Source of the DNA: an uncultured Solirubrobacteraceae bacterium
Lineage (GTDB): Bacteria; Actinomycetota; Thermoleophilia; Solirubrobacterales; Solirubrobacteraceae
Assembly: GCA_964588985.1 (NCBI GenBank)
Contig: CAZPQW010000004.1
Location: 32,001-96,000, forward strand
Reading direction: 5' to 3'
Length of the DNA: 64,000 nucleotides
The notes under the pieces were generated by a model. That model ran no database searches and was not told where the DNA came from. It saw only the letters and a program-made list of their open reading frames with translations. Position numbers and translations under genes: made by a program. This document shows, one piece after another, positions 19,950 through 44,190 of this stretch (position 1 is the stretch's first letter; each line of letters starts with the position of its first letter).

Positions 19950-20078
19950 TGGCCTCTCCAACCTCTCCGTAGCTGTGGGTCCCTCGACCCGAGGCCATCC
20001 AGGCCTCAGTGTTCTTAACGGTCCTTGCTACCCAGTTTGTTCAACCCTACGCGTCGAGTTGTTATCGACCGGGGCGTG

Positions 20079-22716: not shown

Positions 22717-23493
22717 ATGCGCAGAGCATCCACCTGTGTTGCCGTTCTAGGCCTGGCCATGTTGGCGCTGACAAGCGCGGCATCGGCGGCGCCGACGGTC
22801 ACTTTCAAAGCAACGGCCGTTCCGATCAAGGGCTTCCCGCACACCGGCAACATCTACGGCGCCGGCGCGGCTGTCGAAGGCGTATTCACGATCAAGGGCA
22901 ACGAATATGGCGGGTTCGAGCCGCCTCTCATCGGCCTGACGGTCTACCTGCCGAAGGGCGTGAAGCTTCACACCTCCGGCTTCCCGACCTGCTCGACGCA
23001 GATCATCGAAAAAATCGAACCGGAAGCGTGCCCGAAGCAGTCCTCCGCAGGACCTCCCGGTTATGCGGACGGGTTCGTCGTGCTCGGCGAACGCGTCCCT
23101 GAGAGGGTGTCGCTGGAAAGCTTCTACGCGCCGGGCGGCGGGATCAACACGATCGTGCTCGGCCACACGCCGGCCTCGATCGAAATCGTCTCGACCGGCA
23201 CGTATTCGCACCTGAACGGCGGCGGCGGCTTTGGCCCGGTGGCGCACTTCAAAGTGCCGGAGATCGTCTCGGTGCCCGGTTCGGCCGCGGCCTCGACCGA
23301 AAAGATCGTCGCGAAGCTCGGCTCGGCGATCAAGAAAGGCAAGAAGACGCTCTACTACGGCACGATGCCGAAGAAAGGCGAATGTCACGGCCACCTCAAA
23401 GTCAAGGCGGAACTGACGTTCGCGGAAAACGGCAACGAACTCACGCCTGAGACCGTGACGACCAGTTACAACGCGCCGTGCCCCAAGAAGTAG
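22717..23493 (+). CDS. secreted protein, single Cys-patterned domain related to the repeats of 17031-19949
   Basis: Signal peptide (ASA); VYLPKGVKL...PTC...EACPKQSSAG; second Cys pair near the C-terminus. Confidence 0.8.
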   Translation: MRRASTCVAVLGLAMLALTSAASAAPTVTFKATAVPIKGFPHTGNIYGAGAAVEGVFTIKGNEYGGFEPPLIGLTVYLPKGVKLHTSGFPTCSTQIIEKIEPEACPKQSSAGPPGYADGFVVLGERVPERVSLESFYAPGGGINTIVLGHTPASIEIVSTGTYSHLNGGGGFGPVAHFKVPEIVSVPGSAAASTEKIVAKLGSAIKKGKKTLYYGTMPKKGECHGHLKVKAELTFAENGNELTPETVTTSYNAPCPKK

Positions 23494-23548
23494 GCGACGG
23501 CAGGGAGTTCGCGTCCGCGAGGGCGTAAGCTCGACAGCAGCAGAGTTG

Positions 23549-23593
23549 GGCCGGGCGGCCCCGCCAAGACGGTGGGGCCGCCCGGCCTGTTGT
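23549..23593 (+). terminator. 17-bp stem hairpin, probable intrinsic terminator or mRNA-stabilising stem
   Basis: GGCCGGGCGGCCCCGCC-aagac-GGTGGGGCCGCCCGGCC then TGTTGT. Confidence 0.7.
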
Positions 23594-23635
23594 AAACGGC
23601 AAGGAAGGATCGGGGTGAGGAAGGAGACCGTCGGG

Positions 23636-25150
23636 GTGAGGGGCATGGTGGCCGGCATCGCCGGAGCCGCCGGCGTCGTCGCGCTCGCGGTCGTGGTTCT
23701 GCTCTCGCTCTCGGCCGGCGGCAACAACGGCGGCTACACGGTCCGCGCGATCTTCGACGACGCCGGCAACGTGATCGTCGGAGAGGACGTGAAGATCGAC
23801 GGCGTCAAAGTCGGCACGGTCGGCACGGTCACTCCGACGCCGCAGGCGAAGGCTGCGGTCGTCCTGAAAATCGAAAACCCCGGCTTCCAGGACTTCCGCT
23901 CCGACGCGACGTGCACCGTGCGCCCGCAGGCGCTGATCGGCGAGAAGTTCGTCGACTGCGTGCCGACCCAGCCGCGCGTTGAAGGCACGCCGCTGCCACC
24001 GGCGCTGAAGAAGATCCCCTCCGGCCAGGAAGGCGCTGGCCAGTGGCTGCTGCCGGTGACGCAGACGAGCAGCCCGGTCGACGTGGACCTGCTCGGAGAC
24101 ATCAGCCGACTCCCCGAACGCGAGCGCCTGACGCTGATCCTCAACGAATTCGGCGCCGGCCTGGCAGGGCGCGGGAGCGACCTCTCGGTGGTCATCCGCC
24201 GCGCAGACCCGGCGCTGCGTGAATTCAACAAGGTGCTCGCGATCCTCGCCAAACAGAACCACGTGCTGGCGAAACTCGCGGTCGACTCCGACAGGGCGCT
24301 CGCACCCTTCGCGGCGGTCCGCAACCGCGTGGCGCACTTCATCGTTGCGGCCAACCAGGTCTCTCAGGCCTCCGCGGCGCATCGTGGCGCGCTGGCACGC
24401 AACCTCAAAGACTTCCCGCCGTTCCTCGAACAGCTCGGCCCGGCGATGGAACGCGTCCAGAAGTTCGCCGAACAGACGATCCCCGTCGCGACCGATCTGC
24501 GTGCCGCCGCGCCGAGCGTCGACCGCGCGTTCACGAGCCTGCCGGGCTTCTCGAAGAGCTCGACGACGTTCTTCGAAGACCTCGGCAAGACCTCGAAGAA
24601 GTCAGGGCCCGCGCTGCTGGCGACGAAACCGCTGCTCGGCAAGCTGCAGGCATTGGGAGAAGCCGCTCAGCCAGCCGCCGGCAACCTCGCGCAACTGCTC
24701 GGCAGCCTGAGCAAGACGGGCGGGCTGGAGCGTCTGCTCGACTTCATCTTCCTCGGCGCGAACGCCGCCAACGGCTACGACTCGCTCGGGCACTTCCTGC
24801 GCACCGAAGGCAGCCCTTCTGCCGGGTGCCTGAACTACGCTCTCAAGCCCGGGGGCTGTTCTCGCAAGCTGTTCAGCACAGGCTCTCCGGCGAAAATCGC
24901 ATCCGCCAGCGAACCGGGCACGAGCGTCACGATGGCGCGGACGCTCGCCGTGCTCAACGGTGCCACCCCCGCGCAGGCGATCGCCAAATACCCCGGTCCG
25001 ACCACGATCGCCGCCAACCCCACCGGCACCGGCGGCTCGACCGGCACAGCTCAGCCCGTCGGCGGCTCGACCGCGGGCACCACGTACTACACCCCCTCCG
25101 AAAGCTCGGAAGCGGGCGGCCTGCTCCTCAACTACCTGCTCGGCAACTGA
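23636..25150 (+). CDS. MCE/MlaD family protein 1
   Basis: N-terminal TM, F.DAGNV..GEDVKIDGVKVG.V, LIGEKFVD, long helical tail; AAGGAG RBS before GTG. Confidence 0.9.
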   Translation: MRGMVAGIAGAAGVVALAVVVLLSLSAGGNNGGYTVRAIFDDAGNVIVGEDVKIDGVKVGTVGTVTPTPQAKAAVVLKIENPGFQDFRSDATCTVRPQALIGEKFVDCVPTQPRVEGTPLPPALKKIPSGQEGAGQWLLPVTQTSSPVDVDLLGDISRLPERERLTLILNEFGAGLAGRGSDLSVVIRRADPALREFNKVLAILAKQNHVLAKLAVDSDRALAPFAAVRNRVAHFIVAANQVSQASAAHRGALARNLKDFPPFLEQLGPAMERVQKFAEQTIPVATDLRAAAPSVDRAFTSLPGFSKSSTTFFEDLGKTSKKSGPALLATKPLLGKLQALGEAAQPAAGNLAQLLGSLSKTGGLERLLDFIFLGANAANGYDSLGHFLRTEGSPSAGCLNYALKPGGCSRKLFSTGSPAKIASASEPGTSVTMARTLAVLNGATPAQAIAKYPGPTTIAANPTGTGGSTGTAQPVGGSTAGTTYYTPSESSEAGGLLLNYLLGN

Positions 25151-25151
25151 C

Positions 25152-27407
25152 GTGAGACGACCGACATTCATCCCATCGCTCCTCGCGCTCCTGAGCGTGC
25201 TGGCGCTGGGCGTCCCGGTAGCGGCGGACGCTGAAACGGGCACCACGACGGTGAGCCCTCCGCCAGCCGAAGGAACCTCCACCGCGCCGTCGACCACGAC
25301 CACGACCGCGCCAAGCGAAGCGCCGGCATCCACGACGACCGGTCCGGAAGCCGAACCGGTGGCGCCACAGGTCCAATCCCAGCAGCCTCAGGGCTCCAGC
25401 CCCAGCGGCTCGTCGACCCCGCCCAAGACGCAAACGCCGAGCGGCGAAACGAAGGCAGCCGAAGAAGGCGCCTCCACGACCGGCCCGCGCTCCAAGCACA
25501 AGGCCGTCTCGCCCTCGACCCTCACGCCGTCGCTGCCGTTGAACCTGCGCTCTGCGATCGGCGGGGTGCCGAGCTTCTTCATCGAAAGCTTCCAGATCCC
25601 GCCGTTCCTGATGCCGATCTTCCAGGCCGCCGGTACCGCGTACGGCGTCCCGTGGCAGGTGCTCGCCGCGATCAACGAGGTCGAGACCGACTACGGACGC
25701 GACCTCAGCGTCTCGAGCGCCGGCGCGGAGGGATGGATGCAGTTCCTGCCGGCCGAGTGGGCGCAGTACGGGGTGGACGCCAACGGCGACGGCTACAGGG
25801 ATCCCTACAACCCGGCCGACGCGATCTTCGCCGCCGCGCGCTACCTGCGCGCGGCTGGGGGAGGCGCAAGCATCAAGAGGGCGGTCTTCTCCTACAACCA
25901 CTCCCAGGCGTACGTCGAATCGGTGATGCTGCGCGCGCAGCTGCTCGGCGGCACGCCCACGGAACTGCTCGGCGCGATCACCGGCCTGACCGAGGCGCGC
26001 TTCCCGGTGCACGCCGCCGCGCGCTTCAGCGACGGCTTCCAAACCGTCCCCGCGAGCGGCTCCCAGCAGGCCAGGACGCTCGTGGGGACGACGATCTACT
26101 CGCAGGCCGGCGCGCCCGTGATCGCGGTGCAGGACGGCGAAATCGTGCAGGTCGGCGATACGCCCGCGCTCGGGAGGTTCGTATCGCTGCGCGACGCCTA
26201 CGGCAACACCTATGTCTACGCCCAGCTCGGCGACGTGGCGTCGGTCTACCCGGTGCTCGAGCCTCGTGAGCAGAGCACCGTGAGCCCGCGGATCTCGCAC
26301 TCAGGACAGGGCGAACCGACGCCTAGCGGTCCGGCGACGGCCGGAGCCCAGGCACGCTCGCCGATCTCCGAGGGCGCCGTGGTCTCAGGCCTCGCGCTGG
26401 GCGCGACGGCGGGCCTCGAAACGATCCCGAGCGCGCCGACGACAAACACCACGTCTCCGGCACAGCCGGCCGCGCCCGCGACGCCGCCGGCTGACGTCCG
26501 CTCCTTCCGCGAAGGGGCCAACGAAGTGATCCTCAATCCGTTGCACGCTGGGGTGCAGGTGATCGCGGGCACCGTGCTCGGCCACGTCGGCGCGGCGACC
26601 AGTGCGAGCACGGTGGGGAGCGAAAGCGCTTCGCACATCCTCTTCCAGGTCCGCCCCGCTGGTCTCGGCGCCCCGCTGATCGATCCCAAGCCGATCCTCG
26701 ACGGCTGGGTGGCGCTCGAGAACACCTCGATCTTCCACGCCAAGGGCGAGAACCCGTTCCTCGCGACCTCGCCGACGGTCGGTCAGGTGCTGCTCGAGTC
26801 CAAGCAGCAGCTCGAACCGCAGGTGCTCCACGACGCCGGCATCCGCCTCAGCAGGTGCGGGCGCCAGGACGTGCAGGAGGGCCGCGTCGACAGGCGCGTG
26901 CTCGCGACGCTCGAGTACCTGTCGGTATCGGGGCTGAAGCCGACGGCCTCCGGCCTGAAGTGCCCCCGCTCGACGACCGCGTCGATCGCCGCCTACGCTC
27001 CCGCGAGCGATGGCAGCGATCTCGTCGACATCAAGGCCATCGACGGCATCCCCGTCGCCGGGCACCAGAGCCCCGGCTCGCTCGCCGACAACGCCATACG
27101 CAAGCTGCTGATGCTCCAGGGTCTCAACCGACCGCAGAGGATCGTGAGCCTGATGAGCTACCCGGGCGCTGCCGGCGCGCTCTCGGACCCGAGTGCTCGC
27201 ACCGCGATCCGCATCATGTTCGCGGCGCCGGCCGCGACCGGCGCGCACGCGAGCGGGCCGCTTTACTCCGGCCTCGCGCCGAGCGAATGGATCAAGCTGA
27301 TCGCACGGCTCGGGGAGATCCCCGACCCGGTCGTCGGCCACGGGCCGTCGTCCGCGGCGATCCCAGACGCATCGAGCGGCCAAGGAGCAGCCGGTGGCAA
27401 CGGCTAG
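25152..27407 (+). CDS. secreted lytic transglycosylase with P/T/S linker, degenerate M23-like domain and C-terminal domain
   Basis: Signal peptide; VPWQVLAAINEVETDYG..SSAGAEGWMQF..GVDANGDG..DP....DAIFAAARYL..YNHS..YV. Confidence 0.88.
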   Translation: MRRPTFIPSLLALLSVLALGVPVAADAETGTTTVSPPPAEGTSTAPSTTTTTAPSEAPASTTTGPEAEPVAPQVQSQQPQGSSPSGSSTPPKTQTPSGETKAAEEGASTTGPRSKHKAVSPSTLTPSLPLNLRSAIGGVPSFFIESFQIPPFLMPIFQAAGTAYGVPWQVLAAINEVETDYGRDLSVSSAGAEGWMQFLPAEWAQYGVDANGDGYRDPYNPADAIFAAARYLRAAGGGASIKRAVFSYNHSQAYVESVMLRAQLLGGTPTELLGAITGLTEARFPVHAAARFSDGFQTVPASGSQQARTLVGTTIYSQAGAPVIAVQDGEIVQVGDTPALGRFVSLRDAYGNTYVYAQLGDVASVYPVLEPREQSTVSPRISHSGQGEPTPSGPATAGAQARSPISEGAVVSGLALGATAGLETIPSAPTTNTTSPAQPAAPATPPADVRSFREGANEVILNPLHAGVQVIAGTVLGHVGAATSASTVGSESASHILFQVRPAGLGAPLIDPKPILDGWVALENTSIFHAKGENPFLATSPTVGQVLLESKQQLEPQVLHDAGIRLSRCGRQDVQEGRVDRRVLATLEYLSVSGLKPTASGLKCPRSTTASIAAYAPASDGSDLVDIKAIDGIPVAGHQSPGSLADNAIRKLLMLQGLNRPQRIVSLMSYPGAAGALSDPSARTAIRIMFAAPAATGAHASGPLYSGLAPSEWIKLIARLGEIPDPVVGHGPSSAAIPDASSGQGAAGGNG

Positions 27408-28776
27408 CCCCCCGAGCACGCCGGCGCCGACCGTGCGCTCCCCGCGATCCGGCGTCGGCCGCGCGCTGCCGATCGGCGCGCTCGCGCTGGTCGTGCTGAT
27501 CGTCGCCTACATCGTGTTCGCGGGCGGCGGCGGAGCGACGTACAAGCTCGAATTCGCCGAAGGCGACCAGCTCGTCCGCGGCGACCAGGTGCAGGTCGGC
27601 GGAGTGCCGGTGGGCAGCATCACGAACATCCAGCTGACCCACGACTTCAAAGCGCTTGTGACGATCCACGTCGACTCCTCGCTCACGCCGCTGCACGAAG
27701 GCACGACGGCGCAGGTCAGGCAGCCGTCGCTGTCGAGCGTCGCCAACCGCTACATAGCGCTGTCGCTCGGACCGAACAACAGGCCGGCGCTGAGTGCGGG
27801 CACGAAGTTGCCCGCGAGCGTGACGAAGCCGGTCACGGACCTCGACCAGCTGTTCAACACGCTCGACCCGAAGACGCGCAAGGGCCTGCAGGGATTCATC
27901 CAGGGCGGGGCCGAACAGTACGCGGGCGTCGGCAAGCAGTTCGGCCAGACGACCGAATACTTCTCGCCTTTCCTCGGCGGCACCGACCGCTTCCTGTCCG
28001 AGCTCGCCCGCGACCAGCACACGTTCACGAGCTTCCTCGTGGAAACCGCCAAGGCCGTGACCACGATCGGAGCCCGCGCGGAACCGCTCGCCGACCTGAT
28101 CGAACACGGCAACAGGGCCTTCCAGGCGATCGGCTCTCAGCAGGCACAGCTCGCCCAGGGGCTGCGCCAGCTGCCCGGCACGCTGCACCAGGGCAACCGC
28201 ACATTCGCGGAACTCCCCTCGACGGTCAGCGCTCTGAAGACGTTCTTCAACACGTCCCGGCCCGCGATCAAGCCGCTGACAACTCTGCTCGCACGGCTGC
28301 GCCCCCTGTTCGAAACCGGCACCGTTCCGATCGGCAACTTCGCCCAGGCGATCGACCGCGCCGGCCCCAACAACGACCTCACCGACCTCGCACTGGCCGT
28401 GCCGGGGCTCGCGAGAGAACTGTCCAAGGCCTCGCCGAGCACGGTCACGGCGCTGCAGGAATCCGTCCCGATCACGGCCTTCTTCGGCCCGTACTCCCCC
28501 GACCTCGAGGGCGCCCTGCGCACGTTCGGCCAGGGGGCCTCCTACTACGACGCCAACGGCCACTACGTGCGCGGCAACCTCGTGCTGCCCGACTTCGAAC
28601 TCGGCGAAGAAAACACGCTGACGCCGACGACCAACCCCGAACAGGCGCTGACGAAGAACCTGAAGACGCTGCAGCTCCGTCGCTGCCCAGGTGGCGCCAC
28701 GCAGCCCGCGGCGGACGGCTCCTCGCCCTTCGCCGACGGCGAACTGCTCACCTGCGACCCGCTGGAGACGCCCTGA
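27394..28776 (+). CDS. MCE/MlaD family protein 2
   Basis: TM then L..GDQVQVGGVPVGSI, YIALSLGP, DLDQLFNTLDPKTR. Confidence 0.92.
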   Translation: MATASPPSTPAPTVRSPRSGVGRALPIGALALVVLIVAYIVFAGGGGATYKLEFAEGDQLVRGDQVQVGGVPVGSITNIQLTHDFKALVTIHVDSSLTPLHEGTTAQVRQPSLSSVANRYIALSLGPNNRPALSAGTKLPASVTKPVTDLDQLFNTLDPKTRKGLQGFIQGGAEQYAGVGKQFGQTTEYFSPFLGGTDRFLSELARDQHTFTSFLVETAKAVTTIGARAEPLADLIEHGNRAFQAIGSQQAQLAQGLRQLPGTLHQGNRTFAELPSTVSALKTFFNTSRPAIKPLTTLLARLRPLFETGTVPIGNFAQAIDRAGPNNDLTDLALAVPGLARELSKASPSTVTALQESVPITAFFGPYSPDLEGALRTFGQGASYYDANGHYVRGNLVLPDFELGEENTLTPTTNPEQALTKNLKTLQLRRCPGGATQPAADGSSPFADGELLTCDPLETP

Positions 28777-30293
28777 TGAACAGGCGTCGCAACAACTCGC
28801 TCGCCAGCAACCCGCTGCTGATCGGCGCGGTCACGACGCTGATCGTCGTCGTCGCGGTGTTCCTCTCCTACAACGCCAACAACGGCCTGCCGTTCGTGCC
28901 GACTTACAACATCAAGGTCGAACTCCCCGAGGGCGCTGGACTGCAGCCATCCAACCAGGTTCGCATTGCCGGTACGCGCGTGGGGGTCGTGAGCGGGCTC
29001 TCGATCCATCAGGACAAGCGGACCGGACGCGTCAGCGCGATCGCGAACCTCAAGCTCGAAAAGGGCGTCGAACCGCTCCCCGCCGACACGAAGGCGATCG
29101 TGCAGTCGGTCTCTGCGATCGGGCTGAAGTACCTCGAACTGGAAAAGGGCCACTCGAACGCGACGATCAAGGCCGGTCACACGATCCCCGTCAGCCAGAC
29201 CACCGAACCGGTGAACATCGACGAACTCTTCAACATGTTCGATAAGAAGACGCGCACGGCGATTAAGGTCAACACGAACAACTTCGGCGACGGTCTCGCC
29301 GGCCGGGGACTCGGCCTGAACAACACGATCGCCGAACTGCGCCCGCTCGTGACGAAGGCGATCCCCGTGCTCCACAACCTCGCGCTGCCGAAGACCGGCC
29401 TCGCCCAGTTGTTCGAAGGGCTCGACCGCGCCGCCTCGCAGACCGCAAACGTGGCGAACGCCAACGCCGAAGGCTGGAGCGATGCCGACACCTTCTTCAC
29501 CGCCTGGGCGAGCGTGACCAGGTCGCTCGAAGAAGCGACCGTGGGCGGGCCGGCATCGCTCGAGCAGGCCACCTACTCGCTCCCCCACGAGGCGCCGTTC
29601 CTCGAGAAGGCCGCCACGTTCATGCACCTCCTGCGCCCCGGAGCGAGCGCGCTGCGCGCCGTCGCGCCGCACCTCGGGCACGCGTTCGCCGAAGGCGCCG
29701 TCAACCTCAGGGCCGCTACCGCGCTCAACGCGCGCCTTGCGGAATCCTCGGAAGCGTTCGCCGCGTTCGCCCAGAACCCGCTCGTAACACTCGGCCTCGA
29801 AGACTTCACGCAGACCCTCCAGATCGCCAACCCGCTCCTGGCTGGATTCGCTCCGATACAGGCGCGATGCAACTACGTGACGCTGGCGTTCCGCAATCTC
29901 GCGAGCCTCGATTCCGAGAACATCGGCGTCGGCACGCTCGCGCGTGCGTCTTTGGTCCTCTCCCCGACGGGACCCAACAACGAGGGCTTCCCGTCCTCGG
30001 CGCCAGCGAACGGCGGATCGACCGAGAGGCAAGCGCAGAACAACCTACCGATCGAAAACAACTATCTGCACGCCAACCCGTACCCGAACGTCGGTGGGCC
30101 GGGGCAGCCGAACGTGTGCGAAGCCGGCAACGAGAAGTTCATCGAAAAACAGACGACGATCGGCAACCTGCCGGCGGCGGACATCGGCACCAGCAAGGAA
30201 TTCACGACCCGCGAAGAAGGCCTGTTCGGCGAAAAATACTCGTCGAGCGCCATTCGCAAAGCCCTCGGCCTGCCCACGGGGAAGGAAAAATGA
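28776..30293 (+). CDS. MCE/MlaD family protein 3
   Basis: TM, GL...NQVRIAGTRVGVV, IGLKYLEL..G, IDELFNMFDKKTR. Confidence 0.92.
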   Translation: MNRRRNNSLASNPLLIGAVTTLIVVVAVFLSYNANNGLPFVPTYNIKVELPEGAGLQPSNQVRIAGTRVGVVSGLSIHQDKRTGRVSAIANLKLEKGVEPLPADTKAIVQSVSAIGLKYLELEKGHSNATIKAGHTIPVSQTTEPVNIDELFNMFDKKTRTAIKVNTNNFGDGLAGRGLGLNNTIAELRPLVTKAIPVLHNLALPKTGLAQLFEGLDRAASQTANVANANAEGWSDADTFFTAWASVTRSLEEATVGGPASLEQATYSLPHEAPFLEKAATFMHLLRPGASALRAVAPHLGHAFAEGAVNLRAATALNARLAESSEAFAAFAQNPLVTLGLEDFTQTLQIANPLLAGFAPIQARCNYVTLAFRNLASLDSENIGVGTLARASLVLSPTGPNNEGFPSSAPANGGSTERQAQNNLPIENNYLHANPYPNVGGPGQPNVCEAGNEKFIEKQTTIGNLPAADIGTSKEFTTREEGLFGEKYSSSAIRKALGLPTGKEK

Positions 30294-31789
30294 GCCGCGC
30301 TCGCTGGTGGCGCCGCCACGACGAGGTCCCGGTCGTCGAGCTGCAGCGCTCGAACCCGCTGCGCTTCGGGATCGTCGTCGTCGTGATCCTCGTGCTGATC
30401 ACCTACTTCGGCTTCACCAAGCACATACCGTTCAAACACGGCTATCGCCTGAAGGCGCTGTTCGCGACCGCGGTCAACATCCACCCCAAGTCCCCGGTGC
30501 GCATCGCGGGCGTGGGCGTCGGCAAGGTCAGCTCGATCGAACGCAACGGCAAGGCCGGGCTCGTGACCATGGAAATCGAATCGCAGGGGCTGCCGATCCA
30601 CGAAGACGCGACGCTGAAGATCCGCCCGCGCATCTTCCTCGAAGGCAACTGGTTCATCGAACTGCAGCCCGGCAGCCCGTCGGCGCCGACGGTCCCCTCA
30701 GGGCACACGATCCCGATCACGCAGACCGCCGACCCGGTGCAGATCGACCAGGTGCTCGACGCGCTCGACACGGACACGCGCGCGAACCTGCAGAAGTTCC
30801 TGATCAACTTCGGCGAAGCCCTCACGCGCAAGCCGAACGCGGCCGAAGACGCCGAACAGGACCCCGAAGTCCGCGGTCTGGACGCTGCCCAGGCGCTCAA
30901 CAAGACCTACACGCGCGCACCCGAAGCGCTCCGCGGCGGCGCGATCATCAACCAGGCGCTCGGCGGCACGAGCACGCACGACCTCTCGGAGCTGATCGCG
31001 AGCGTCGGCAAAGTCACGACCGCGCTGAACGTCCACGAGCAGCAGCTGGGAGAACTGATCGAAAACTTCAACACGTTCCTCGGGGCGCTCGCGGCGCAGT
31101 CGGTGGCGCTGACGACGGTCGTCGGGGAACTGCCGAAGACGCTGCACGGCATCGACCGCGGCCTCGCCTCGCTCGACGCGTCGTTCGCGCCCACGCGGGC
31201 GTTCGCGCACGACATACTCCCCGGCCTCAGGAACACCCCCGCGACCGTCACCGCGGTTCTGCCGTGGATCGAACAGGTGCAGGCCTCGCTCGCCCCGAGC
31301 GAGCTCGGAGGCGTGGCGAAGGGGCTCGCCGCGGCCACCCCGTCGCTGGCGAAGCTGTTCGGCGAACAGGCGCCCTTCTACCGCCAGGGCGACCTGTTCA
31401 ACAAATGCCTCACGAAGATCATCTACCCGGCCGGCAACACCAAGATCCAGGACGGCGCGAGCACCTCCGGCGTCGAGAACTACAAGGAATTCTGGTACGG
31501 CCTCGTGGGCCTGAACGGCATCGGGCAGGACTTCAACGGCAACGGCACCGTCGGCAGGTTCCTCGTCGGCAACAGCGGCAAGACGCTGCGCTCGCGACCC
31601 ACCTCGATCCTCGGCACGAAACTCCAGGGGCTGAGGATGCTGACGCGCTCGCCGCTCACGCCGGAAGGCACGCGCCCCGCCTACCCGGCCGAAGAGCCGT
31701 CCTACCAGCCGCTCGTGCCCTGCTACACCCAGACGCTGCCCAACTTCAACGGCCCGCTGTCGCAGGGTCCCGCGGACGGGAGTGAATGA
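30290..31789 (+). CDS. MCE/MlaD family protein 4
   Basis: TM, SPVRIAGVGVGKV, LEGNWFIELQPG, IDQVLDALDTDTR; ATGA coupling. Confidence 0.92.
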   Translation: MSRARWWRRHDEVPVVELQRSNPLRFGIVVVVILVLITYFGFTKHIPFKHGYRLKALFATAVNIHPKSPVRIAGVGVGKVSSIERNGKAGLVTMEIESQGLPIHEDATLKIRPRIFLEGNWFIELQPGSPSAPTVPSGHTIPITQTADPVQIDQVLDALDTDTRANLQKFLINFGEALTRKPNAAEDAEQDPEVRGLDAAQALNKTYTRAPEALRGGAIINQALGGTSTHDLSELIASVGKVTTALNVHEQQLGELIENFNTFLGALAAQSVALTTVVGELPKTLHGIDRGLASLDASFAPTRAFAHDILPGLRNTPATVTAVLPWIEQVQASLAPSELGGVAKGLAAATPSLAKLFGEQAPFYRQGDLFNKCLTKIIYPAGNTKIQDGASTSGVENYKEFWYGLVGLNGIGQDFNGNGTVGRFLVGNSGKTLRSRPTSILGTKLQGLRMLTRSPLTPEGTRPAYPAEEPSYQPLVPCYTQTLPNFNGPLSQGPADGSE

Positions 31790-33297
31790 TGACCCCCGCC
31801 GAGAGACCACCCGAGAGCCCGCGGGGCGGATCCCACGAAGGCGGACTCAGCGTCCGCGAGCAGATCGAGCGATACCGCACGGCGTTCATCGCGGTCGTGA
31901 CGATGATCGTGATCGCGGCGGCCGTCGGCGGCTACATCCTCGCGCACGAGAATCTCAAGCTCCCAGGCTGGGTGCCAGTCCTCGGCCGCGACTACTACAC
32001 GCTGAAGGCCGACTTCCAGACCGCCCAGGCCGTGACCCCCGGACAGGGCCAGGCGGTGACGATCGCGGGCGCGAAGATCGGCGAAATCCAGAGCGTCAAC
32101 CTCAACCACGGGATCGCGACCGTGACGATGAGGATCGTCCCCAAATACGCGCGCATCTACCGCAACGCGACGATGCTGCTGCGCCCGAAGACCCAGCTGC
32201 AGGACATCACCGTCGAGGTCAACCCCGGTACGCCCTCGGCCGGGAAGCTGAAGAGCGGCGCGACGATCCCGCTGTCGCAGACCGCGCCGAACGTGGACTT
32301 CGACGAATTCCTCGCGGGTCTCGACGGCGAAACGCGCGCCTACCTGCAGGAGCTGTTGGCCGCGGCCGGCGAAGGGCTCAACCACAACGGCAGGGCGCTG
32401 TCCGCGGCGCTCAAGCGCTTCGAGCCGAGCGCCCGCTACGGTCAGGAGATCGCCAGGGCGCTCCAGACACGCAACGCGAACATCGCCCGCTCGATCCACA
32501 ACTTCCGCCTCCTCACCGAAGCGCTCGGCGGCAAGGACCAGCAGCTCGCTCAGCTGATCGACTCTTCCAACGCGGTGTTCACGACCTTCCGCGAAGAGGA
32601 CGCCAATTGGGAACGAACCCTTCACCTGCTGCCCTCCGCGTTGCGCAAGACCGGGAAGGGACTCGGTACGCTCGCCAAGGCCACCGACCAGCTCGGCCCG
32701 GCGCTGCACAAACTGCAGCCGTTCGCCAAGGCGCTCGCTCCCGGCAACGAACAGACCCAGATCCTGGCGAAGAAGACGACGCCGATATTCAAGAACGAAA
32801 TCCGCCCGTTCGCGCGCGAAATACTGCCGGTCGTCAACGAACTGCAGCCCGCCACGCAGAAGCTGGGCGAAGCGTTCCCCAACCTCAAGATCAGCTTCTC
32901 GGTGCTCAACGAATTCTTCAACGAGCTCGCGTACAACCCGAGCGCGAGCAAGCCGAACTTCCTGTTCTTCCTCGACTGGGGCAACCACAACCTCGACAGC
33001 GTCGTCAGCTCGGCGGACGCCAACGGGCCGCTCGGGCGCAGTCTCGTGTACCTCAACTGCAACCTCCTACCAATCCTGGAACCGGCCTCGAAGGTCAACC
33101 CGAATGTGAACCTGCTGATCGGCCTGCTCAAGCCTCCGACGAAGCAAGAATGCATCAACCAAGGTCTCAAGGCAGCTCCGTCGAGTCAGCGTGGTCACAC
33201 CACGAGCACGGGTGGCGGCCTGTTCTCGGGGCTCGAACAGCATCCGTTCGGCGGCACCTCCACACCCACGTCAAGCGCCAAGGCTGGGAAGAACTAG
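31786..33297 (+). CDS. MCE/MlaD family protein 5
   Basis: TM, AVTIAGAKIGEI, VEVNPGTP, FDEFLAGLDGETR. Confidence 0.9.
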   Translation: MMTPAERPPESPRGGSHEGGLSVREQIERYRTAFIAVVTMIVIAAAVGGYILAHENLKLPGWVPVLGRDYYTLKADFQTAQAVTPGQGQAVTIAGAKIGEIQSVNLNHGIATVTMRIVPKYARIYRNATMLLRPKTQLQDITVEVNPGTPSAGKLKSGATIPLSQTAPNVDFDEFLAGLDGETRAYLQELLAAAGEGLNHNGRALSAALKRFEPSARYGQEIARALQTRNANIARSIHNFRLLTEALGGKDQQLAQLIDSSNAVFTTFREEDANWERTLHLLPSALRKTGKGLGTLAKATDQLGPALHKLQPFAKALAPGNEQTQILAKKTTPIFKNEIRPFAREILPVVNELQPATQKLGEAFPNLKISFSVLNEFFNELAYNPSASKPNFLFFLDWGNHNLDSVVSSADANGPLGRSLVYLNCNLLPILEPASKVNPNVNLLIGLLKPPTKQECINQGLKAAPSSQRGHTTSTGGGLFSGLEQHPFGGTSTPTSSAKAGKN

Positions 33298-34836
33298 ATG
33301 CAGAAGCGCGCCCCCACGCTCGGCAACATCCTCGTGATCATCCTGTTCGTGCTCAGCTGCTTCGGGCTGCTGATGTTCCTGTGGGAGTCCTTCGGCGGTC
33401 CGCTGCCGCTGAAGCCAAAGGGCTACCGCATCACGGTCCCCTTCCCGCGCACGCTCGCGCTCGCCGAACAGTCCGACGTGCGCATCAGCGGGGTGAATGT
33501 GGGCCATGTGATCTCGCTGCACCTCGGCAGCGACGGGCGCACCCACGCGACGCTCGAAATCGCCGGGCAATACGCGCCGATACGCGCCGACATGCACGCG
33601 ATCCTGCGCCAGAAGACGCTGCTGGGAGAGACCTACGTGCAGCTGATCCCTGAGGCACAGAGCGGACCGTTCCTGGGCGACGGCAAAGAGCTCGCGGTCA
33701 ACCAGGTCGAACCGTCGGTGACGCTCGACGACATCCTCTCGGCGTTTGACCCGAAGACGAGGCGCGACTTCCAGGTGTGGCTGCAGGCTGGCTCGGAAGG
33801 GCTGAAGGGCCGCGGCGAACAGGTCAACGCGTCGTTCGCCAAACTCGAACCGTTCGTCGAACACGCGAACAAGCTCGTGGCGATCCTCGACTCCCAGGAA
33901 GGCGCCGTGACCGCACTCGTGCACAACACGGGCGTCGTCTTCAACGCGCTCGCCAGCCGCGACCACCAGCTCGAAGGGATCATCGCCAACGGCGAGCGCA
34001 CGTTCCACGCCGCCGCCGAAGGCAGCCAGGCCTTCGCGCAGGCATTCCGCGAACTGCCGGCGTTCGAGAAGAACTCGCGCCAGGCGCTCAAAGAACTCGA
34101 CAGCCTCGCCGCCGTCGCGAACCCCTACTTCGACGAATTCAAGCCCGCCGAGCGTCAGCTGGGACTGACGCTCGGGGCGGCCAAGCCATTCGCGCCCCAG
34201 CTCGACAAGTTCCTGACAGGTCTCGGTCCGCTGACGAAGGCCGCGCAGAAGGGTCTGCCCGAAGTCAAGAAGACTCTGAACCTGACGACGCCCGTGCTCG
34301 AAAACCTGCGGCCGGTGCTGCACAACCTCGATCCCTTCCTGCAGTACACGGGCGAGTACGTGCCCGAGCTGCAGGCGTTCTTCGCCAACCTCACCGCCGC
34401 CACGCAGGGGAGCGAAAGCAACAGCAACACCGTCAACCCGACGACCGAAAAGGCACAAGGTCCCAAGGAGCACCTTCTGGCGACGATGGCCGTGCTGAGT
34501 CCGGAAAGCCTCGCTATCTACCCCAGCCGCATCGGCACGAACCGCGCCAACGCCTATCCGCTCCCCGGCGCGTTCCGCTCGCTTGCCAGCGGGCTGTCGG
34601 TGTTCGAATCGGGCTCGTGCGCGAACTCGGCTCCGTCGGTCAGCGGACCGGGCAACGAAGTCATCTCCGAAGAACTCATAAAAGATCTGACGACGCCTGT
34701 CCACCCGGGCGAATCGCCGGTCGCCAACACGCCCAAAGAAGCCAACGCCATCCCGGCTCCGGCCTGCAGCCAGCAGGGCCCGTTCACGTTCAATGGCAAG
34801 ACGAGTCAGTTCCCACACGCGATCTACGAAAAATGA
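33298..34836 (+). CDS. MCE/MlaD family protein 6
   Basis: TM, SDVRISGVNVGHV, TLLGETYVQL.P, LDDILSAFDPKTR. Confidence 0.92.
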   Translation: MQKRAPTLGNILVIILFVLSCFGLLMFLWESFGGPLPLKPKGYRITVPFPRTLALAEQSDVRISGVNVGHVISLHLGSDGRTHATLEIAGQYAPIRADMHAILRQKTLLGETYVQLIPEAQSGPFLGDGKELAVNQVEPSVTLDDILSAFDPKTRRDFQVWLQAGSEGLKGRGEQVNASFAKLEPFVEHANKLVAILDSQEGAVTALVHNTGVVFNALASRDHQLEGIIANGERTFHAAAEGSQAFAQAFRELPAFEKNSRQALKELDSLAAVANPYFDEFKPAERQLGLTLGAAKPFAPQLDKFLTGLGPLTKAAQKGLPEVKKTLNLTTPVLENLRPVLHNLDPFLQYTGEYVPELQAFFANLTAATQGSESNSNTVNPTTEKAQGPKEHLLATMAVLSPESLAIYPSRIGTNRANAYPLPGAFRSLASGLSVFESGSCANSAPSVSGPGNEVISEELIKDLTTPVHPGESPVANTPKEANAIPAPACSQQGPFTFNGKTSQFPHAIYEK

Positions 34837-35663
34837 CGATGACCGACGACCCCAGCGACTTCCAGTACCACTCCAGCGAGCTCGACCTCTCGGGCGACCC
34901 CGACGCGGGCAACTGGTCGATCCGCTGCATCGACGTGCACAAGCGCCTCGGCGGCGTCCCGGTCCTGAACGGGCTGAACGTTGCTTTCCCCGACGACACG
35001 ATCACGGTCGTGCTGGGTCCGTCGGGCACGGGCAAGAGCGTGCTGATCAAGCACCTGATCGGGCTGATGTTCCCCGACTCGGGCGACATCATCGTCAAAG
35101 GGCAGTCGGTGCCGAAGCTGACGATGCCAAAGCTGCTCGAGCTGCGCCGCAAGATCGGCGTGCTGTTCCAGGACGGCGCGCTGTTCGGGTCGATGACGGT
35201 GTTCGACAACGTCGCCTTCCCGCTGCGCCAGCACACCGACTTCTCCGAGGCCATGATCAGGGAGCGCGTGACCCAGCGGCTCGCGGACGTCGGGTTGGGC
35301 GACGCGATGGACGACGCGCCGTCACAGCTCTCCGGCGGCATGCGCAAGCGTGCGGGGTTCGCGCGCGCGCTCGTGATGGAGCCCGACATCGTGATCTTCG
35401 ACGAGCCCGACTCGGGTCTGGATCCGGTGCGCACGGCGCTGCTGTGCGAGCTGATCCAGGAGATGCACTCGATCCACGGCGGCACCTACATCGTCGTCAC
35501 CCACGACATCGCCTCCGCGCGCAGGATCGGCGAATACATCGCGCTGTTGTGGCGCGGGCGGATCGTGGAGGCGGGCGACGCGGCGCGGATGTTCTCCTCC
35601 GAGAACGCGTTCGTGCGCCAGTTCCTGAGCGGATCGGCAGAGGGTCCGCTGACGATGGATTGA
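34833..35663 (+). CDS. ABC ATPase, MlaF/MceG (Mkl) type
   Basis: GPSGTGKS, LFQDGALFGSM, LSGGMRKRAGFARAL, DEPDSGLDP, VRQFL.G...GP. Confidence 0.93.
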   Translation: MTMTDDPSDFQYHSSELDLSGDPDAGNWSIRCIDVHKRLGGVPVLNGLNVAFPDDTITVVLGPSGTGKSVLIKHLIGLMFPDSGDIIVKGQSVPKLTMPKLLELRRKIGVLFQDGALFGSMTVFDNVAFPLRQHTDFSEAMIRERVTQRLADVGLGDAMDDAPSQLSGGMRKRAGFARALVMEPDIVIFDEPDSGLDPVRTALLCELIQEMHSIHGGTYIVVTHDIASARRIGEYIALLWRGRIVEAGDAARMFSSENAFVRQFLSGSAEGPLTMD

Positions 35664-36088: not shown

Positions 36089-37057
36089 GTGACAACGGAC
36101 GAGCGAGTCGCGCTGGATCAGCGCACAAGGGTCATGCAGGCGCTGGCCGATGTGCTCGCGGAGCGTGGGTTCGCGGGCGCTACGGTCGTGCTGGTGGTCA
36201 CACGGGCGAGGGTCTCCACGCGGACGTTCTACGAGCTGTTCACTGGCTTGGAGGAGTGTCTGATTGCGATCATGGACAGCGTTCTGGAACAGGTGGTAGC
36301 GCTCGCCTCGCGAGAGCTTGCGCTGGCCGAGCGCTGGCAGGACGGGTTGCGCTCAGCGCTCGCTGCGGTGCTGACCTTCTTCGACCGCGAACCCGTGCTG
36401 GCGAGGGTGTTTATCGTGGAGGCGCTCGCGGGTGGCCCGGTCGTCCTCCAGCATCGTGAGGGCGTCATCGAGGCGTTGCGCGTGCCGGTCATAGAGCGCA
36501 TTGAGGGCGAAGTACTCGCCGTCGCGCCGCTTGTCGCCGAGGGCGTGATGGGCTCCGTGCTCGGGCTTATGCATGGGCACATCGTCAGGGACCGGCCCGG
36601 CCCATTTATCGAACTGCTCGGCCCGTTGATGGGACTTGCCATAGCGCCTTATCTGGCTGCTCGAAGTGTGGAACGGGAGATGGAGCAGGGAACCGCGCTC
36701 GCACGAGCGATTCTCAACTGCGACTTCCCTTCCACCGTGCCGGCGCAAGCCGAAGGACAGGATTTGGAACTGGATATGGAGCAGGGTGTTGTTCTCCCCG
36801 CGATGTTCGGGAACCCGAGTGCCCGTCGCGCGCGCGAATGTTTATTGTTTCTCGCCGAGCAGAGTGGGCGGGGATTCAGTCCTTCCAACCGTGAGATCGC
36901 CGTGGGAATCGATGTCGCCCACCGGTCGCAGATCTCAAAGCTGCTCGCATACCTCTCCCAGGAGGGTCTGGTGACGAAGCGCTCTGAGGGAAGCGGTAAG
37001 CGCAACGCATGGCGGCTCACGCCGCGTGGCGAAGATATAGCGCGAACGCTGCCGTAG
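36089..37057 (+). CDS. TetR-family regulator with additional C-terminal winged HTH
   Basis: N-terminal RARVSTRTFYELF; C-terminal SNREIA..I..SQISKLL..L..EGLV..NAWRLTPRG. Confidence 0.85.
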   Translation: MTTDERVALDQRTRVMQALADVLAERGFAGATVVLVVTRARVSTRTFYELFTGLEECLIAIMDSVLEQVVALASRELALAERWQDGLRSALAAVLTFFDREPVLARVFIVEALAGGPVVLQHREGVIEALRVPVIERIEGEVLAVAPLVAEGVMGSVLGLMHGHIVRDRPGPFIELLGPLMGLAIAPYLAARSVEREMEQGTALARAILNCDFPSTVPAQAEGQDLELDMEQGVVLPAMFGNPSARRARECLLFLAEQSGRGFSPSNREIAVGIDVAHRSQISKLLAYLSQEGLVTKRSEGSGKRNAWRLTPRGEDIARTLP

Positions 37058-38478: not shown

Positions 38479-38865
38479 TCAGCGGGGCTGAGAGACCTCG
38501 ATGCCGAGAGCCTGTGCGGCGTCTGAAAGGCGGCTGTCATAGCAGTACAGGCGCTCGAGGTCTTCACCGAGGCTCACGACGGTTGCCAGGTGCAGGGCAT
38601 CGAGTGAACGCAGCTCGGCTGGATCCAGCTCGGCGGCGGCGTCGAGGATCGGCTGATCCAGCGGAACCAGCGTGATGGCTGTGATGGCGGCACGGGCGCG
38701 TTCGGAGGCCAGCTCGCCGTAGCGCCGGGCGGCGCGGCGGCCCTCCACGGTGAGCAGGGCGCTGCTGAGGAGTTCCCTGCCGGCTAGCTCGCGGCGCAGG
38801 GCAGCGCTCTCGGGCTCGGAGCGCACGAGCTTGATGAATGCCGAGGTGTCGAGGTAGTCGGGCAA
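38479..38865 (-). CDS. vapC: PIN-domain (VapC) toxin
   Basis: YLDTSAFIKL, E, LRSLDALHLATV, YD.RL. Confidence 0.9.
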   Translation of the reverse strand: MPDYLDTSAFIKLVRSEPESAALRRELAGRELLSSALLTVEGRRAARRYGELASERARAAITAITLVPLDQPILDAAAELDPAELRSLDALHLATVVSLGEDLERLYCYDSRLSDAAQALGIEVSQPR

Positions 38866-38870
38866 ACGCT

Positions 38871-39149
38871 CTACAGGCGCTCTGAGCGCAGCTCGTCCAG
38901 CACATCGCTCGACGGTGGGCCTGCAATCGGCGTTGGCAACTCCTGCAGGACGTCGAGCAGGTTGCCCTGCCCGCGTCTGGCTCCACGTTCGGCGACAAGC
39001 CGGTCGATGGCCGAGGCGCGTCCGGGCGCAGGCGTGAGCTGTGCGACCTCCTGCCCGCGATCGGTGATGAGAAACGACTCTCCATGTCGAGCCCGTTGGG
39101 CGTAGCGGCTGAGGTTCTGCCGCATCTCTCGGATACCCACATACTCCAT
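38871..39149 (-). CDS. Phd/YefM family antitoxin
   Basis: VGIREMRQNLS.Y......GE...ITDRG..VA.L; TACAAT 7 nt upstream of ATG. Confidence 0.88.
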   Translation of the reverse strand: MEYVGIREMRQNLSRYAQRARHGESFLITDRGQEVAQLTPAPGRASAIDRLVAERGARRGQGNLLDVLQELPTPIAGPPSSDVLDELRSERL

Positions 39150-39201
39150 GTGCGTCATTGTAGCGCTTTCAGATAGAGATTGACCCCGGCTGGATTCTAT
39201 G

Positions 39202-39215
39202 CGAACATACGTTCG
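39202..39215. promoter_or_regulatory. LexA SOS box (GAAC-N4-GTTC type)
   Basis: CGAACATACGTTCG ending 1 nt before the imuB ATG. Confidence 0.9.
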
Positions 39216-39216
39216 T

Positions 39217-40422
39217 ATGATCGTGTGCGTGTATCTGCCCCGCTTCGAGTTGGCCGTGGCCGGCGCGGACGGCCGGTCGAAGGTCGCGCGCCAAACACTG
39301 GCGGGACGCGCGCTGGCGGTCGAGCCGCTGCCCGGGACGGAGCCGCGCGTGGGGGAGGTGTCGGGAGCTGCAGAAGCTTGCGGCGTGACGCGCGGGATGG
39401 CGCTCGGCGAGGCGCTCGCGCGCTGCCCGGAGCTGGTGCTCGTGCCCGGCGACCCGGTGAGGGTGGCCGAGACCTGGGAGAGCGCGATCTGCGCGCTCGA
39501 ATCGATCGGTGCGGATGTCGAGCCCGCCGGTCCAGGACTCGCGTACTTCGAGGCCGATGGACTGCGCGGTCTGCACGGGACGCAGGCCGCGACGATCGCC
39601 GCGGCCAGGCGTGCGCTCGCCCGCCCCGCGCGCATCGGCGCCGGCCCGACGCGCTTCTGCGCGCTGGCCGCCGCGCTGGCCGTCCGGTCGCGCCGACCGC
39701 TGGTGCTCGAGGGCAAGGAGGCACGACGTTGGCTGGCGGCGCGTCCGGTCTCGCTGCTCAGCTTTCGCGAGCAGACCGCGATGCTGGTGGAGCCGCTCTC
39801 GCGCCTGGGTGTGCGCACGCTCGGCGAGCTGGCGAAGATCGGGCGGTCTGCGCTGGCCGACCGCTTCGGGGAGCCGGGGGCGCTCGCGCACCGGCTGGCC
39901 TGCGGCGAGGACACACCGCTGCGCGTACGACGCCTGGAGGAGCGCCTGGAGGAGACGATGGAAGTCGGCGACGCGAGCTCCGGCGAGGCGCTCAAGCGCG
40001 TGATGGGTGTGCTCGTTGGCCGGCTGCTCGCCCGCGTGGAGCGCCGTGGGCGCACGCTGCGCGCGGTCACGCTCTCCGCGCGACTGCTGGCGGGCGGAGG
40101 CTGGCGTGAGCGCGTGGTCTTCCGCCAGGCGCTCGCCGACCCGGAGCGCATCTGGCTGGCGCTGTCGCTGCGCCTGCTGCTGCTCCCCGCGCCGGCCGCG
40201 ACGCTGGGCCTGGCCGTCGAGCGCTTCGGACCGCCCGCGAGCGAGCAGGGAGGGCTGCTCGCCGAGGATCGCGCCCGCGCCGCCCGCGCCGGGCGCCTGC
40301 GCGAGGCGATCGCCCAGACGCGCGCGGTGGCCGGCAGGGACGCGGCGCTGCGAGCCGTGTGCGTGGACCCCGACTCGCGGGTGCCCGAGCGGCGCGTGGT
40401 GCTCGCGCCGATCCCCGAATGA
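39217..40422 (+). CDS. imuB: ImuB-like Y-family polymerase homologue (probably catalytically inactive)
   Basis: A...GV..GM.L.EA..RCP, LGVRTLGELA, RFG; no DinB DxDxF catalytic motif; upstream of dnaE2. Confidence 0.82.
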   Translation: MIVCVYLPRFELAVAGADGRSKVARQTLAGRALAVEPLPGTEPRVGEVSGAAEACGVTRGMALGEALARCPELVLVPGDPVRVAETWESAICALESIGADVEPAGPGLAYFEADGLRGLHGTQAATIAAARRALARPARIGAGPTRFCALAAALAVRSRRPLVLEGKEARRWLAARPVSLLSFREQTAMLVEPLSRLGVRTLGELAKIGRSALADRFGEPGALAHRLACGEDTPLRVRRLEERLEETMEVGDASSGEALKRVMGVLVGRLLARVERRGRTLRAVTLSARLLAGGGWRERVVFRQALADPERIWLALSLRLLLLPAPAATLGLAVERFGPPASEQGGLLAEDRARAARAGRLREAIAQTRAVAGRDAALRAVCVDPDSRVPERRVVLAPIPE

Positions 40423-40658: not shown

Positions 40659-40668
40659 GGAGATCGCG

Positions 40669-44190
<3,522 letters not shown>

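Follow-up and report, generated by a model that had tools for sequence, protein, structure and literature searches.

An Mce-type gene cluster in a derived, split layout with an embedded lytic transglycosylase gene in one genus of Solirubrobacteraceae

The closest described systems to the gene cluster reported here are mycobacterial Mce1 and Mce4 (8FED, 8FEE and 8FEF), in which six different MCE proteins carry a transmembrane anchor, an MCE domain and a helical extension, as do the six MCE proteins of this cluster. The cluster comprises nine co-oriented genes at positions 22717-35663 on the + strand of a stretch of 64,000 nucleotides (hereafter the window; positions 32,001 to 96,000 of contig CAZPQW010000004.1, assembly GCA_964588985.1) from an uncultured Solirubrobacteraceae bacterium of soil. 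The list of open reading frames (ORFs) and the analysis of start codons gave the order up-hairpin-mce1-LT-mce2-mce3-mce4-mce5-mce6-ATPase, where LT stands for a predicted lytic transglycosylase and up for the upstream gene. Space-making lytic transglycosylases of secretion systems, flagella and pili include VirB1, EtgA and FlgJ, and LT resembles them in that its gene lies within the operon of a machine that spans the envelope. According to Casali and Riley (2007; PMC1810536), the mce operons of actinomycetes all share one structure, with two yrbE genes followed by six mce genes, mkl being upstream in non-mycobacterial genera and genes for exported Mas proteins downstream. A 2026 review (PMC13492129) names MceG, LucA/B, Mam/Omam and Mce1N as accessory factors of Mce systems and states that the mycobacterial ATPase gene need not adjoin the mce genes. 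MlaDE homologues in monoderm Solirubrobacterales were reported by Grasekamp et al. as being of unknown function (PMC10665443).

Compared with these systems, the locus shows clear likenesses and clear differences. It is like mycobacterial Mce1 in that its ATPase is closest to the MceG chain, its mce4 product is closest to Mce1B and YrbE-type pairs are present in the genome. Unlike in mycobacteria, it is the permeases and not the ATPase that are encoded elsewhere, a wall hydrolase gene lies inside the cluster, no mam/mas-type genes were recognised in the cluster, and Omp85 gave no match. With the mce operons of Streptomyces, Nocardioides and Janibacter, as described by Casali and Riley (PMC1810536), it shares a host without a mycomembrane (here predicted) and a linked Mkl-type ATPase gene, but it differs from them in the downstream position of this ATPase gene, in the location of yrbE elsewhere and in the inserted hydrolase gene.

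At the level of the whole genome (G000; 95.9% complete, 48 contigs), the Mce-type gene set is complete, since six MCE proteins, an MceG/MlaF-type ATPase and a YrbE pair are all encoded; its layout is derived, and it contains a clade-specific inserted transglycosylase gene. All six MCE proteins scored above the Pfam cut-off for MlaD of 25.1 bits (mce1, 45.2; mce2, 49; mce3, 45.8; mce4, 52; mce5, 28.4; and mce6, 55.8 bits), and mce5 also matched Mce4_CUP1 with 31.1 bits. TIGR00996 matched all six over approximately 210-290 profile positions with E values of 1e-22 to 1e-35 (2.9e-22 for mce1, 8.1e-35 for mce2, 2.9e-24 for mce3 and 1.5e-29 for mce5), scores that are under its curated cut-off. Hydrophobic N-terminal stretches, as for a transmembrane anchor, were read in the MCE proteins. 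The closest solved structure for mce4 was Mce1B of the Mycobacterium smegmatis Mce1 complex (8fed_B, E = 4.7e-12). The product of the last gene matched ABC_tran with 102.2 bits in Pfam; its closest solved relative was 8fed_G of the same M. smegmatis complex (E = 6.8e-65), followed by MlaF (E = 3.8e-56), and its top NCBIfam match was MlaF (E = 9.9e-64, under the cut-off). A Cys pair was read from the translations in the C-terminal tail of each of the six MCE proteins. In mce6, the tail residues C441 and C490 were invariant among 24 orthologues, and these cysteines suggest that one disulfide may form per MCE tail outside the cell.

The junctions from mce1 to the ATPase gene measure, in order, +1, -14, -1, -4, -4, 0 and -4 nt. 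Contigs of other public runs bridge the cluster junctions, one of them, of 2200 nt, spanning positions 23383-25582 with 0 differences, and the gene order of the cluster is repeated in related loci. An earlier note, made from the letters of this DNA alone, had read here six MCE proteins, an embedded transglycosylase with a degenerate M23 module, an ATPase, a secreted subunit and a hairpin, in the order given above and with tight junctions; ORFs, Pfam matches and folding recovered all of these parts where the note had placed them. The canonical order yrbEA-yrbEB-mceA-F was not found in the cluster, which contains no yrbE gene.

The permease genes are located in other parts of the genome. MlaD gave exactly six matches, all within the cluster, and MlaE gave four, none of them in the cluster: one pair is on contig C12, and another is split over the ends of contigs C47 and C11. 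The C12 pair has a GntR regulator and a CvpA-trypsin fusion gene on one side and topoisomerase I on the other, with no adjoining ATPase or MCE gene, and is 77-79% identical to the C47/C11 pair; it stands alone and is divergent from the GntR regulator (L005:8703-10360; G000 C12:80744-82098). The C47/C11 pair is followed on C11 by a second MlaF-like ATPase gene, 64% identical to that of the window, and then directly by an MMPL gene, with no mce gene between them. These genes form a yrbE-yrbE-MlaF-like ATPase-MMPL operon without MCE genes (L006:5528-10068 at the end of C11 and L001:3-788 at the start of C47), which may be an "orphan" ATP-binding cassette (ABC) module that possibly shares the single MCE set.

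The arrangement in sister genera points to the origin of this split. There, yrbE-yrbE-ATPase lies upstream of the six mce genes and MMPL downstream of them (four genomes from three genera). For comparison, 11 mce clusters from nine genomes, all outside the window's genus, were used. In all 11 the order was mce2-like, mce1-like and then the later genes in order, and in 10 of them all six mce genes were matched with nothing between them, the 11th being without a listed mce3-like match. Window mce1 is closest to the second mce gene of the sister-genus clusters and mce2 to the first, so that, unlike in those clusters, the first two mce genes are swapped here. The C47/C11 genes of the window genome compare with the flanks of the sister-genus clusters at 74-87% identity for yrbE and 76-81% for the ATPase, and the MMPL match is 45-50% identical. 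Because the identity of 39-50% between the window MCE proteins and those of the sister genera resembles the 45-55% found among the sister genera themselves, the window MCE genes are the orthologues of the sister-genus set, moved elsewhere and with an exchange of the first two genes. Both the yrbE pair and the MceG-like ATPase, single in the sister genera, are duplicated in the window's genus. Five chromosomes of the clade, each contained in one record, gave six MlaD matches each, all in the LT cluster, and two to three yrbE pairs far away from it, and therefore one MCE set appears to face two ABC modules in this clade.

In a class-level sample of 121 genomes, MlaD was found in 9 of the 11 genomes of family f1, in 8/8 of f2, in 1/1 of f3, in 1/20 of f5 and in none of the other families (these and the genus labels are codes). 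The f5 genome had two weak matches, the best with an E value of 8e-5, and MlaD is thus almost confined to the window's order. The lack of an Omp85 match in the window genome, at its 95.9% completeness, is consistent with a single membrane in the host. The cluster does not encode a new kind of machine: it belongs to the Mce ABC transporter of Solirubrobacteraceae, here with a derived and split layout. The earlier note had proposed an undescribed envelope-spanning machine, and this part of it has to be given up: the permeases are encoded elsewhere in the genome, the MCE proteins are orthologous to those of canonical clusters, and Mce genes of monoderm Actinobacteria, including Solirubrobacterales, are already described in published work (PMC10665443, PMC1810536).

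The position of LT in the cluster is highly conserved among close relatives. When species-representative genomes were scanned with LT, 487 relatives emerged, of which the best 80 were kept; these are 58-82% identical to LT, and the titles of their records are Solirubrobacteraceae or Solirubrobacterales metagenome-assembled genomes, except for locus L008, which is filed as an uncultured alphaproteobacterium. Gene order around these best 80 was determined by tblastn with the window proteins, the denominators being the loci with enough flank; genes of relatives were called by a simple codon-position GC rule. Directly upstream of LT, mce1 was found in 73/74 related loci (in the exception, L009, it is about 500 nt away), and directly downstream mce2 was also found in 73/74, the exception L011 being a record with broken frames. 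All six mce genes and the ATPase gene were present in 64/64 loci. Gaps of at most 10 nt were found at 16 of 18 measurable mce1-LT junctions and at 32 of 40 measurable LT-mce2 junctions, start codons in the related loci being approximate. In a family-level sample of 201 genomes from 51 genera, with at most six genomes per genus, LT matches of at least 65% identity occurred only in the window's genus, and the other matches listed were at most 50% identical; an unpublished genome (G283) forms one row of this tally, and the statement on LT identity is independent of it. The genus with the embedded LT is a large and so far uncultured one within the Solirubrobacteraceae.

Further copies of LT were observed outside mce clusters. 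The window genome has a second, divergent copy, LT2 (C4:164798-167233), whose zinc motifs are also degenerate and which is divergently oriented to an up-family gene (L101:7525-11258; G000 C4:163527-167233), with a MacB/FtsX-type permease gene about 2.4 kb away; the divergent pair of an up-like gene and LT2 is also present in G188, a genome of the same genus. G071 has an ATPase-yrbE-yrbE-mce cluster with a non-embedded LT on the other strand, about 5.5 kb upstream and outside the cluster (L099:7761-17652); the ATPase of this cluster is 68% identical to that of the window.

LT is predicted to be a modular wall hydrolase. As read from its translation, it begins with a signal peptide followed by a long Ser/Thr/Pro-rich linker, and in Pfam it matched SLT_2 with 61.2 bits (cut-off 24.3 bits), SLT with 38.5 bits and, partially, M23 with 34.7 bits (profile positions 5-55 of 96). 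The VET motif of Slt35 aligns to LT residues 177-179, within a segment of residues 160-245 that comprises the motif and what follows it. Both the transglycosylase core and the VET Glu were kept in 19/19 aligned family members, and this residue (Glu178) is what we take to be the catalytic Glu of the transglycosylase. With its SLT_2 match and the aligned VET segment, LT is like E. coli MltB/Slt35; unlike in these enzymes, only the core matches, and LT has two further hydrolase-like modules. Scores against TIGR02282 and TIGR02283 were far under the cut-offs. LT can thus be classified from its sequence as a family 3-like (MltB/Slt35-like) transglycosylase with SLT_2 and the Glu, and its activity is predicted. 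The metal motifs of M23 are HxxxD and HxH, the zinc ligands; in the alignment of the whole LT family, the first is absent and only the first His of the last remains, and the M23 module is accordingly a degenerate LytM in every member of the family.

The C-terminal domain of LT, of approximately 250 aa, had no Pfam match. Its structural model had a pLDDT (predicted local distance difference test) of 71.1, with 85-96 in the core, and 10 of its top 11 matches in VIA-align were LAS-type, at middling Z values: 7.5 for MepA, 7.0 for the C-terminal domain of VldE, 5.2-5.9 for Hedgehog N-domains, 5.1-5.3 for phage L-Ala-D-Glu peptidases and endolysins (T5, RB49, Ply500 and LysB4) and 5.1 for the Streptomyces DD-peptidase 1lbu. 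Foldseek found no match to this model in the PDB at E <= 1e-3, a sequence-profile search of the PDB with an alignment of the domain gave 0 matches, and a search of PHROGs with the LT C-terminal domains found nothing. Sub-threshold matches to PF06904 were confined to LT copies with intact zinc motifs. The model makes an LAS/M15-like fold of this domain likely, but not proven. SxHxxGxAxD and HxH, the motifs of M15/VanY-type enzymes, are both absent from the window LT; they were lost in 70/75 embedded LTs and kept in 5/75 embedded LTs and in 5/7 non-embedded relatives. In a tree of 19 sequences, the embedded LTs form one clade (support 100/99) with a long stem. Within it, the three motif-retaining members form one clade; the other nine are its sister group, are set off by a long branch (0.38) and are without both motifs in the C-terminal domain. 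Since the zinc motifs were lost in most embedded copies and kept in most non-embedded ones, their loss suggests that the role of LT may have changed after its insertion.

The up gene, which the earlier note had also tied to the mce genes, does stay with them, being located upstream of mce1 in 73/74 related loci; the exception, L065, has up in another tblastn listing. The protein had no Pfam or NCBIfam match. Its AlphaFold model (pLDDT 86.1) is all-beta, with structural matches to Gram-positive pilin, adhesin and YcnI-like sandwiches at Z values of 7.3-8.4, a range that the tool calls middling and common, and Foldseek found no match to it in the PDB at E <= 1e-3. Residues C92, C105, C221 and C255 were invariant or nearly so among 36 sequences. 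The up family is unnamed and has 1253 cluster representatives at E <= 1e-3 in a library of 1.84 billion proteins, with five to six copies in the window genome and 10 in G188. Longer members carry Big_3_5 or InlB B-repeat domains, which are bacterial immunoglobulin-like (Ig-like) domains, and an MCE or hydrolase domain was found in 0 of 24 longer members checked. Longer forms with a fused domain were looked for in a collection of 5.8 billion proteins and none was found, which the tool rates as weak evidence, and the ESM Atlas returned unnamed clusters, with CARDB as the nearest named one at 0.81, a lead only. The up profile did not match the small unnamed genes that adjoin LT in sister genera. 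A 763-aa open frame in G071 that looked like an MCE-up fusion was rejected, because its mce6-like and up-like matches are in different frames and reflect adjacency. Because longer members are joined to bacterial Ig-like domains, up is predicted to be an extracellular or surface module of a multi-copy family.

Genes of the up family adjoin mce genes in four genus-level settings, namely, in this clade, in G071 (just downstream of the mce6-like gene), in G083 (downstream of an orphan mce6-like gene, where it is the only up match of the genome), and in G139 and G183 (about 1.7 kb upstream of mce and divergent). Away from mce genes, up-like genes were found in G211, G136, G179, G053, G095 and G113. 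The other copies of the window genome adjoin LT2, MacB/FtsX-type ABC genes and an MMPL gene, the last being a weak match. Further up-family genes were noted at L108:5979-7518 and L109:5899-7263; these regions contain a tandem up-family pair upstream of an ABC ATPase and an FtsX-type permease, as well as a 454-aa ORF with an up-like segment of about 250 residues at its end, behind undecaprenyl-diphosphate synthase, DUF2600 and a MacB-type permease. In L110:1975-9351 (G000 C18), the weak up-like match (E = 2e-6) is located just downstream of the MMPL gene, and next come genes for an acyl-CoA synthetase-like protein and a wax-ester synthase/DGAT. In being exported and multi-copy, with some members beside mce genes and others orphan, the up family is like the Mam/Omam (Mas) proteins (PMC1810536). 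Unlike the Mas proteins, described as predicted alpha-plus-beta proteins (PMC1810536), and OmamA, described as NTF2-like (PMC13492129), the up model is an all-beta sandwich, and no sequence relation of up to Mas, Mam or Omam proteins was found. A functional link between up and Mce is conceivable, though on balance we would sooner bet against it.

The hairpin that follows up has been kept as a structure. A 71-nt stretch folds at -50.5 kcal/mol (z = -5.9, with 0/200 shuffles as good), and in 67/67 related loci the spacer between up and mce1 contains a hairpin of -30 kcal/mol or below in a 60-nt window, with differing stem sequences. A scan for consensus terminators did not list the hairpin, and a scan for sigma-70 promoters gave 0 sites. 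It is likely a terminator or attenuator between up and mce1, and the conservation of structure with varying sequence in all 67 loci suggests that up may be at least partly its own transcription unit.

A TetR-family regulator gene downstream of the cluster possibly controls it; its product has a weak, sub-threshold likeness to the fatty-acid regulators FasR and FadR. A weak TetR-like match (25-30% identity) separates mce6 from the ATPase gene in L040, L043, L046, L057 and L065, where it is on the opposite strand, and in G188, at L107:8887-9438; the ATPase gene is therefore not always fused to the mce operon. Upstream of the cluster there are genes for an acyl-CoA dehydrogenase, a flavin monooxygenase-like protein, a GMC oxidoreductase and a cutinase. 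Lipid use would fit, weakly, both these upstream genes and the FasR/FadR likeness of the regulator. Elsewhere in the window, a 976-aa ORF at positions 17031-19961 (- strand), located two genes upstream of purM, has gene-like codon statistics and matched neither Pfam nor NCBIfam. At positions 38479-44190, a PIN-domain gene precedes genes for an ImuB-like protein (IMS family) and a DnaE2-like polymerase, which together look like a damage-inducible mutagenesis cassette. The coordinates of the cluster and its regulator gene are compiled in Table 1.

Table 1. Positions in the window of the genes and the hairpin of the cluster and of the neighbouring regulator gene
Feature	Position	Strand	Description	Basis
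up	22717-23493	+	Secreted 258-aa beta-sandwich protein, four conserved Cys	ORF, signal-like N-terminus
hairpin	23549-23587	+	Perfect 17-bp GC-rich stem-loop, then UGUUGU	Fold
mce1	~23645-25150 (alternative starts 23615, 23636)	+	MCE protein with transmembrane anchor, MlaD domain, helical region and Cys-pair tail	
LT	25152-27407	+	SLT/degenerate-M23 hydrolase	Pfam SLT_2, SLT, partial M23
mce2	27394-28776	+	MCE protein	MlaD
mce3	28776-30293	+	MCE protein	MlaD
mce4	30290-31789	+	MCE protein	MlaD
mce5	31786-33297	+	MCE protein	MlaD, Mce4_CUP1
mce6	33298-34836	+	MCE protein	MlaD
ATPase	34833-35663	+	MceG/Mkl/MlaF-type ABC ATPase, second copy in genome	ABC_tran
TetR-family regulator	36089-37057	+	Possible cluster regulator	TetR_N 25.6 bits

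On these data, we consider that the whole has about an even chance of being an Mce-type transporter for hydrophobic substrates in which LT has been co-opted as a wall-opening accessory. The host would be a monoderm member of the Solirubrobacteraceae, and the cluster would supply its Mce-type ABC transporter with the part that spans the wall and with one motor. By homology to mycobacterial Mce1, the six membrane-anchored MCE proteins would assemble into a heterohexameric ring and a helical needle, which would dock on a pair of YrbE (MlaE) permeases whose genes lie outside the cluster. The needle would be powered either by the MceG-like ATPase encoded last in the cluster or by the paralogous one of the yrbE-yrbE-ATPase-MMPL locus. 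Judging from the solved mycobacterial complex, transport would most likely be the import of hydrophobic substrates. In the ancestor of the genus, the six mce genes would have left the canonical operon, had their first two members swapped and settled behind a surface-protein gene, and a copy of an order-wide, three-module wall hydrolase gene would later have been inserted between mce1 and mce2. LT would be produced together with the MCE subunits and would cut glycan strands locally, letting the needle thread through, or stay in, the thick wall, and the dead LytM and dead M15-like modules of LT would serve in binding or targeting. The fuller picture of an Mce needle with its own wall-opening enzyme, whose dead modules dock or target the needle and with up at the distal, wall-side end, is offered tentatively and is rather unlikely in all its details.

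Several observations weigh against a dedicated role of LT in transport. The LT family was found in 20/20 sampled genomes of the order, including two (G035 and G065) without an MlaD match, and is thus order-wide and independent of MCE genes. In sister genera its members are located next to beta-oxidation genes or pst/phoU/DUF2334, contexts unrelated to Mce, and LT was inside none of the 11 comparison clusters. In G188 (same genus; one contig, 94% complete), the order is up-mce1-mce2-mce3-mce4-mce5-mce6-TetR-like-ATPase, with approximately 170 nt between mce1 and mce2 and no LT, and the only full-length LT-family member of this genome lies elsewhere. Conservation of the transglycosylase with the mce genes, which the earlier note had made its own test, holds within the clade of one genus (73/74), and it breaks down outside that genus and in G188. 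Since G188 has the rearranged cluster without LT, relocation of the mce genes next to up would most simply have preceded the insertion of LT, loss of LT in G188 being the less simple alternative. Unlike VirB1, EtgA and FlgJ, LT thus appears to be a late, genus-restricted insertion of an order-wide hydrolase and not a machine part conserved across lineages, as a machine-dedicated lytic transglycosylase would be. Finally, the embedded LT was the sole match at E <= 1e-100 in four of the five same-genus genomes that have one, and because it is the only high-scoring family member in most genomes with an embedded copy, it could be a simple housekeeping enzyme. All this would be expected if the cluster were an ordinary Mce importer and LT the general wall-remodelling enzyme of the order, which came into the operon in the same round of rearrangement and is merely co-transcribed, without any role in Mce function. 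We give this account a sizeable probability, although one clearly short of even. It does not readily accommodate the fact that dozens of species have kept LT in second place, its junctions overlapping or nearly touching, or the long branch of LT and the loss of its peptidase motifs after insertion, and it would place a housekeeping enzyme under the possible TetR-type control of a lipid-uptake operon.

The co-option of LT by an importer also has to be weighed against two readings in which the output of the machine is a different one. MMPL proteins export lipids, and the canonical sister-genus cluster ends in an MMPL-type gene; the up family is predicted to be extracellular, has Ig-like domains in its longer members and adjoins mce in four genera, and a strong, conserved hairpin behind up is what one might expect if a surface protein were expressed separately and at a high level. 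An MCE needle that moves a lipid or another component outward and builds an outer layer together with up would agree with these points, but up-like genes also occur away from mce in six genomes and next to MMPL and MacB/FtsX-type genes, the genome gave no Omp85 match, and the characterised actinobacterial Mce systems are described as importers in the 2026 review (PMC13492129), so that export or assembly is improbable. By analogy with FtsEX, which controls EnvC, RipC or PcsB, the Mce ABC machine might instead regulate LT through its dead LytM module, with wall cutting as the main output. The degenerate LytM module of LT and the MacB/FtsX-type permease near LT2 would fit such control, but the same LT family works without any MCE genes in other genomes, and G188 keeps the rearranged Mce cluster without LT, which makes this the least probable of the readings considered, with very little chance of being right.

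What is new here is a reshuffled Mce gene set with an embedded wall hydrolase gene, kept in one genus and not in its relatives, the Mce system itself being of a known type. A full-text literature search, which covered papers without their supplements, surfaced no paper on a wall hydrolase inside an mce operon. The terms "peptidoglycan" and "hydrolase" have 0 occurrences in the main text of the 2026 Mce review (PMC13492129), and judged by this term search of its main text, the passage of the Mce needle through peptidoglycan is not addressed there. The clade offers a natural comparison, given that dozens of species have a transglycosylase gene in the mce operon and a congener and the sister genera are without it, and the decay of the peptidase module of LT is visible within the clade. 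Furthermore, it shows that mce genes can uncouple from their permeases and leave behind a yrbE-yrbE-ATPase-MMPL operon without MCE genes, which leads one to ask if a single MCE hexamer works with two ABC modules. Should the hydrolase prove a mere hitch-hiker, what is left is an unusual operon rearrangement. If the Mce system does have its own wall-opening enzyme, it would be the first with a dedicated peptidoglycan-remodelling subunit and would provide a natural model of the passage of Mce needles through thick walls.

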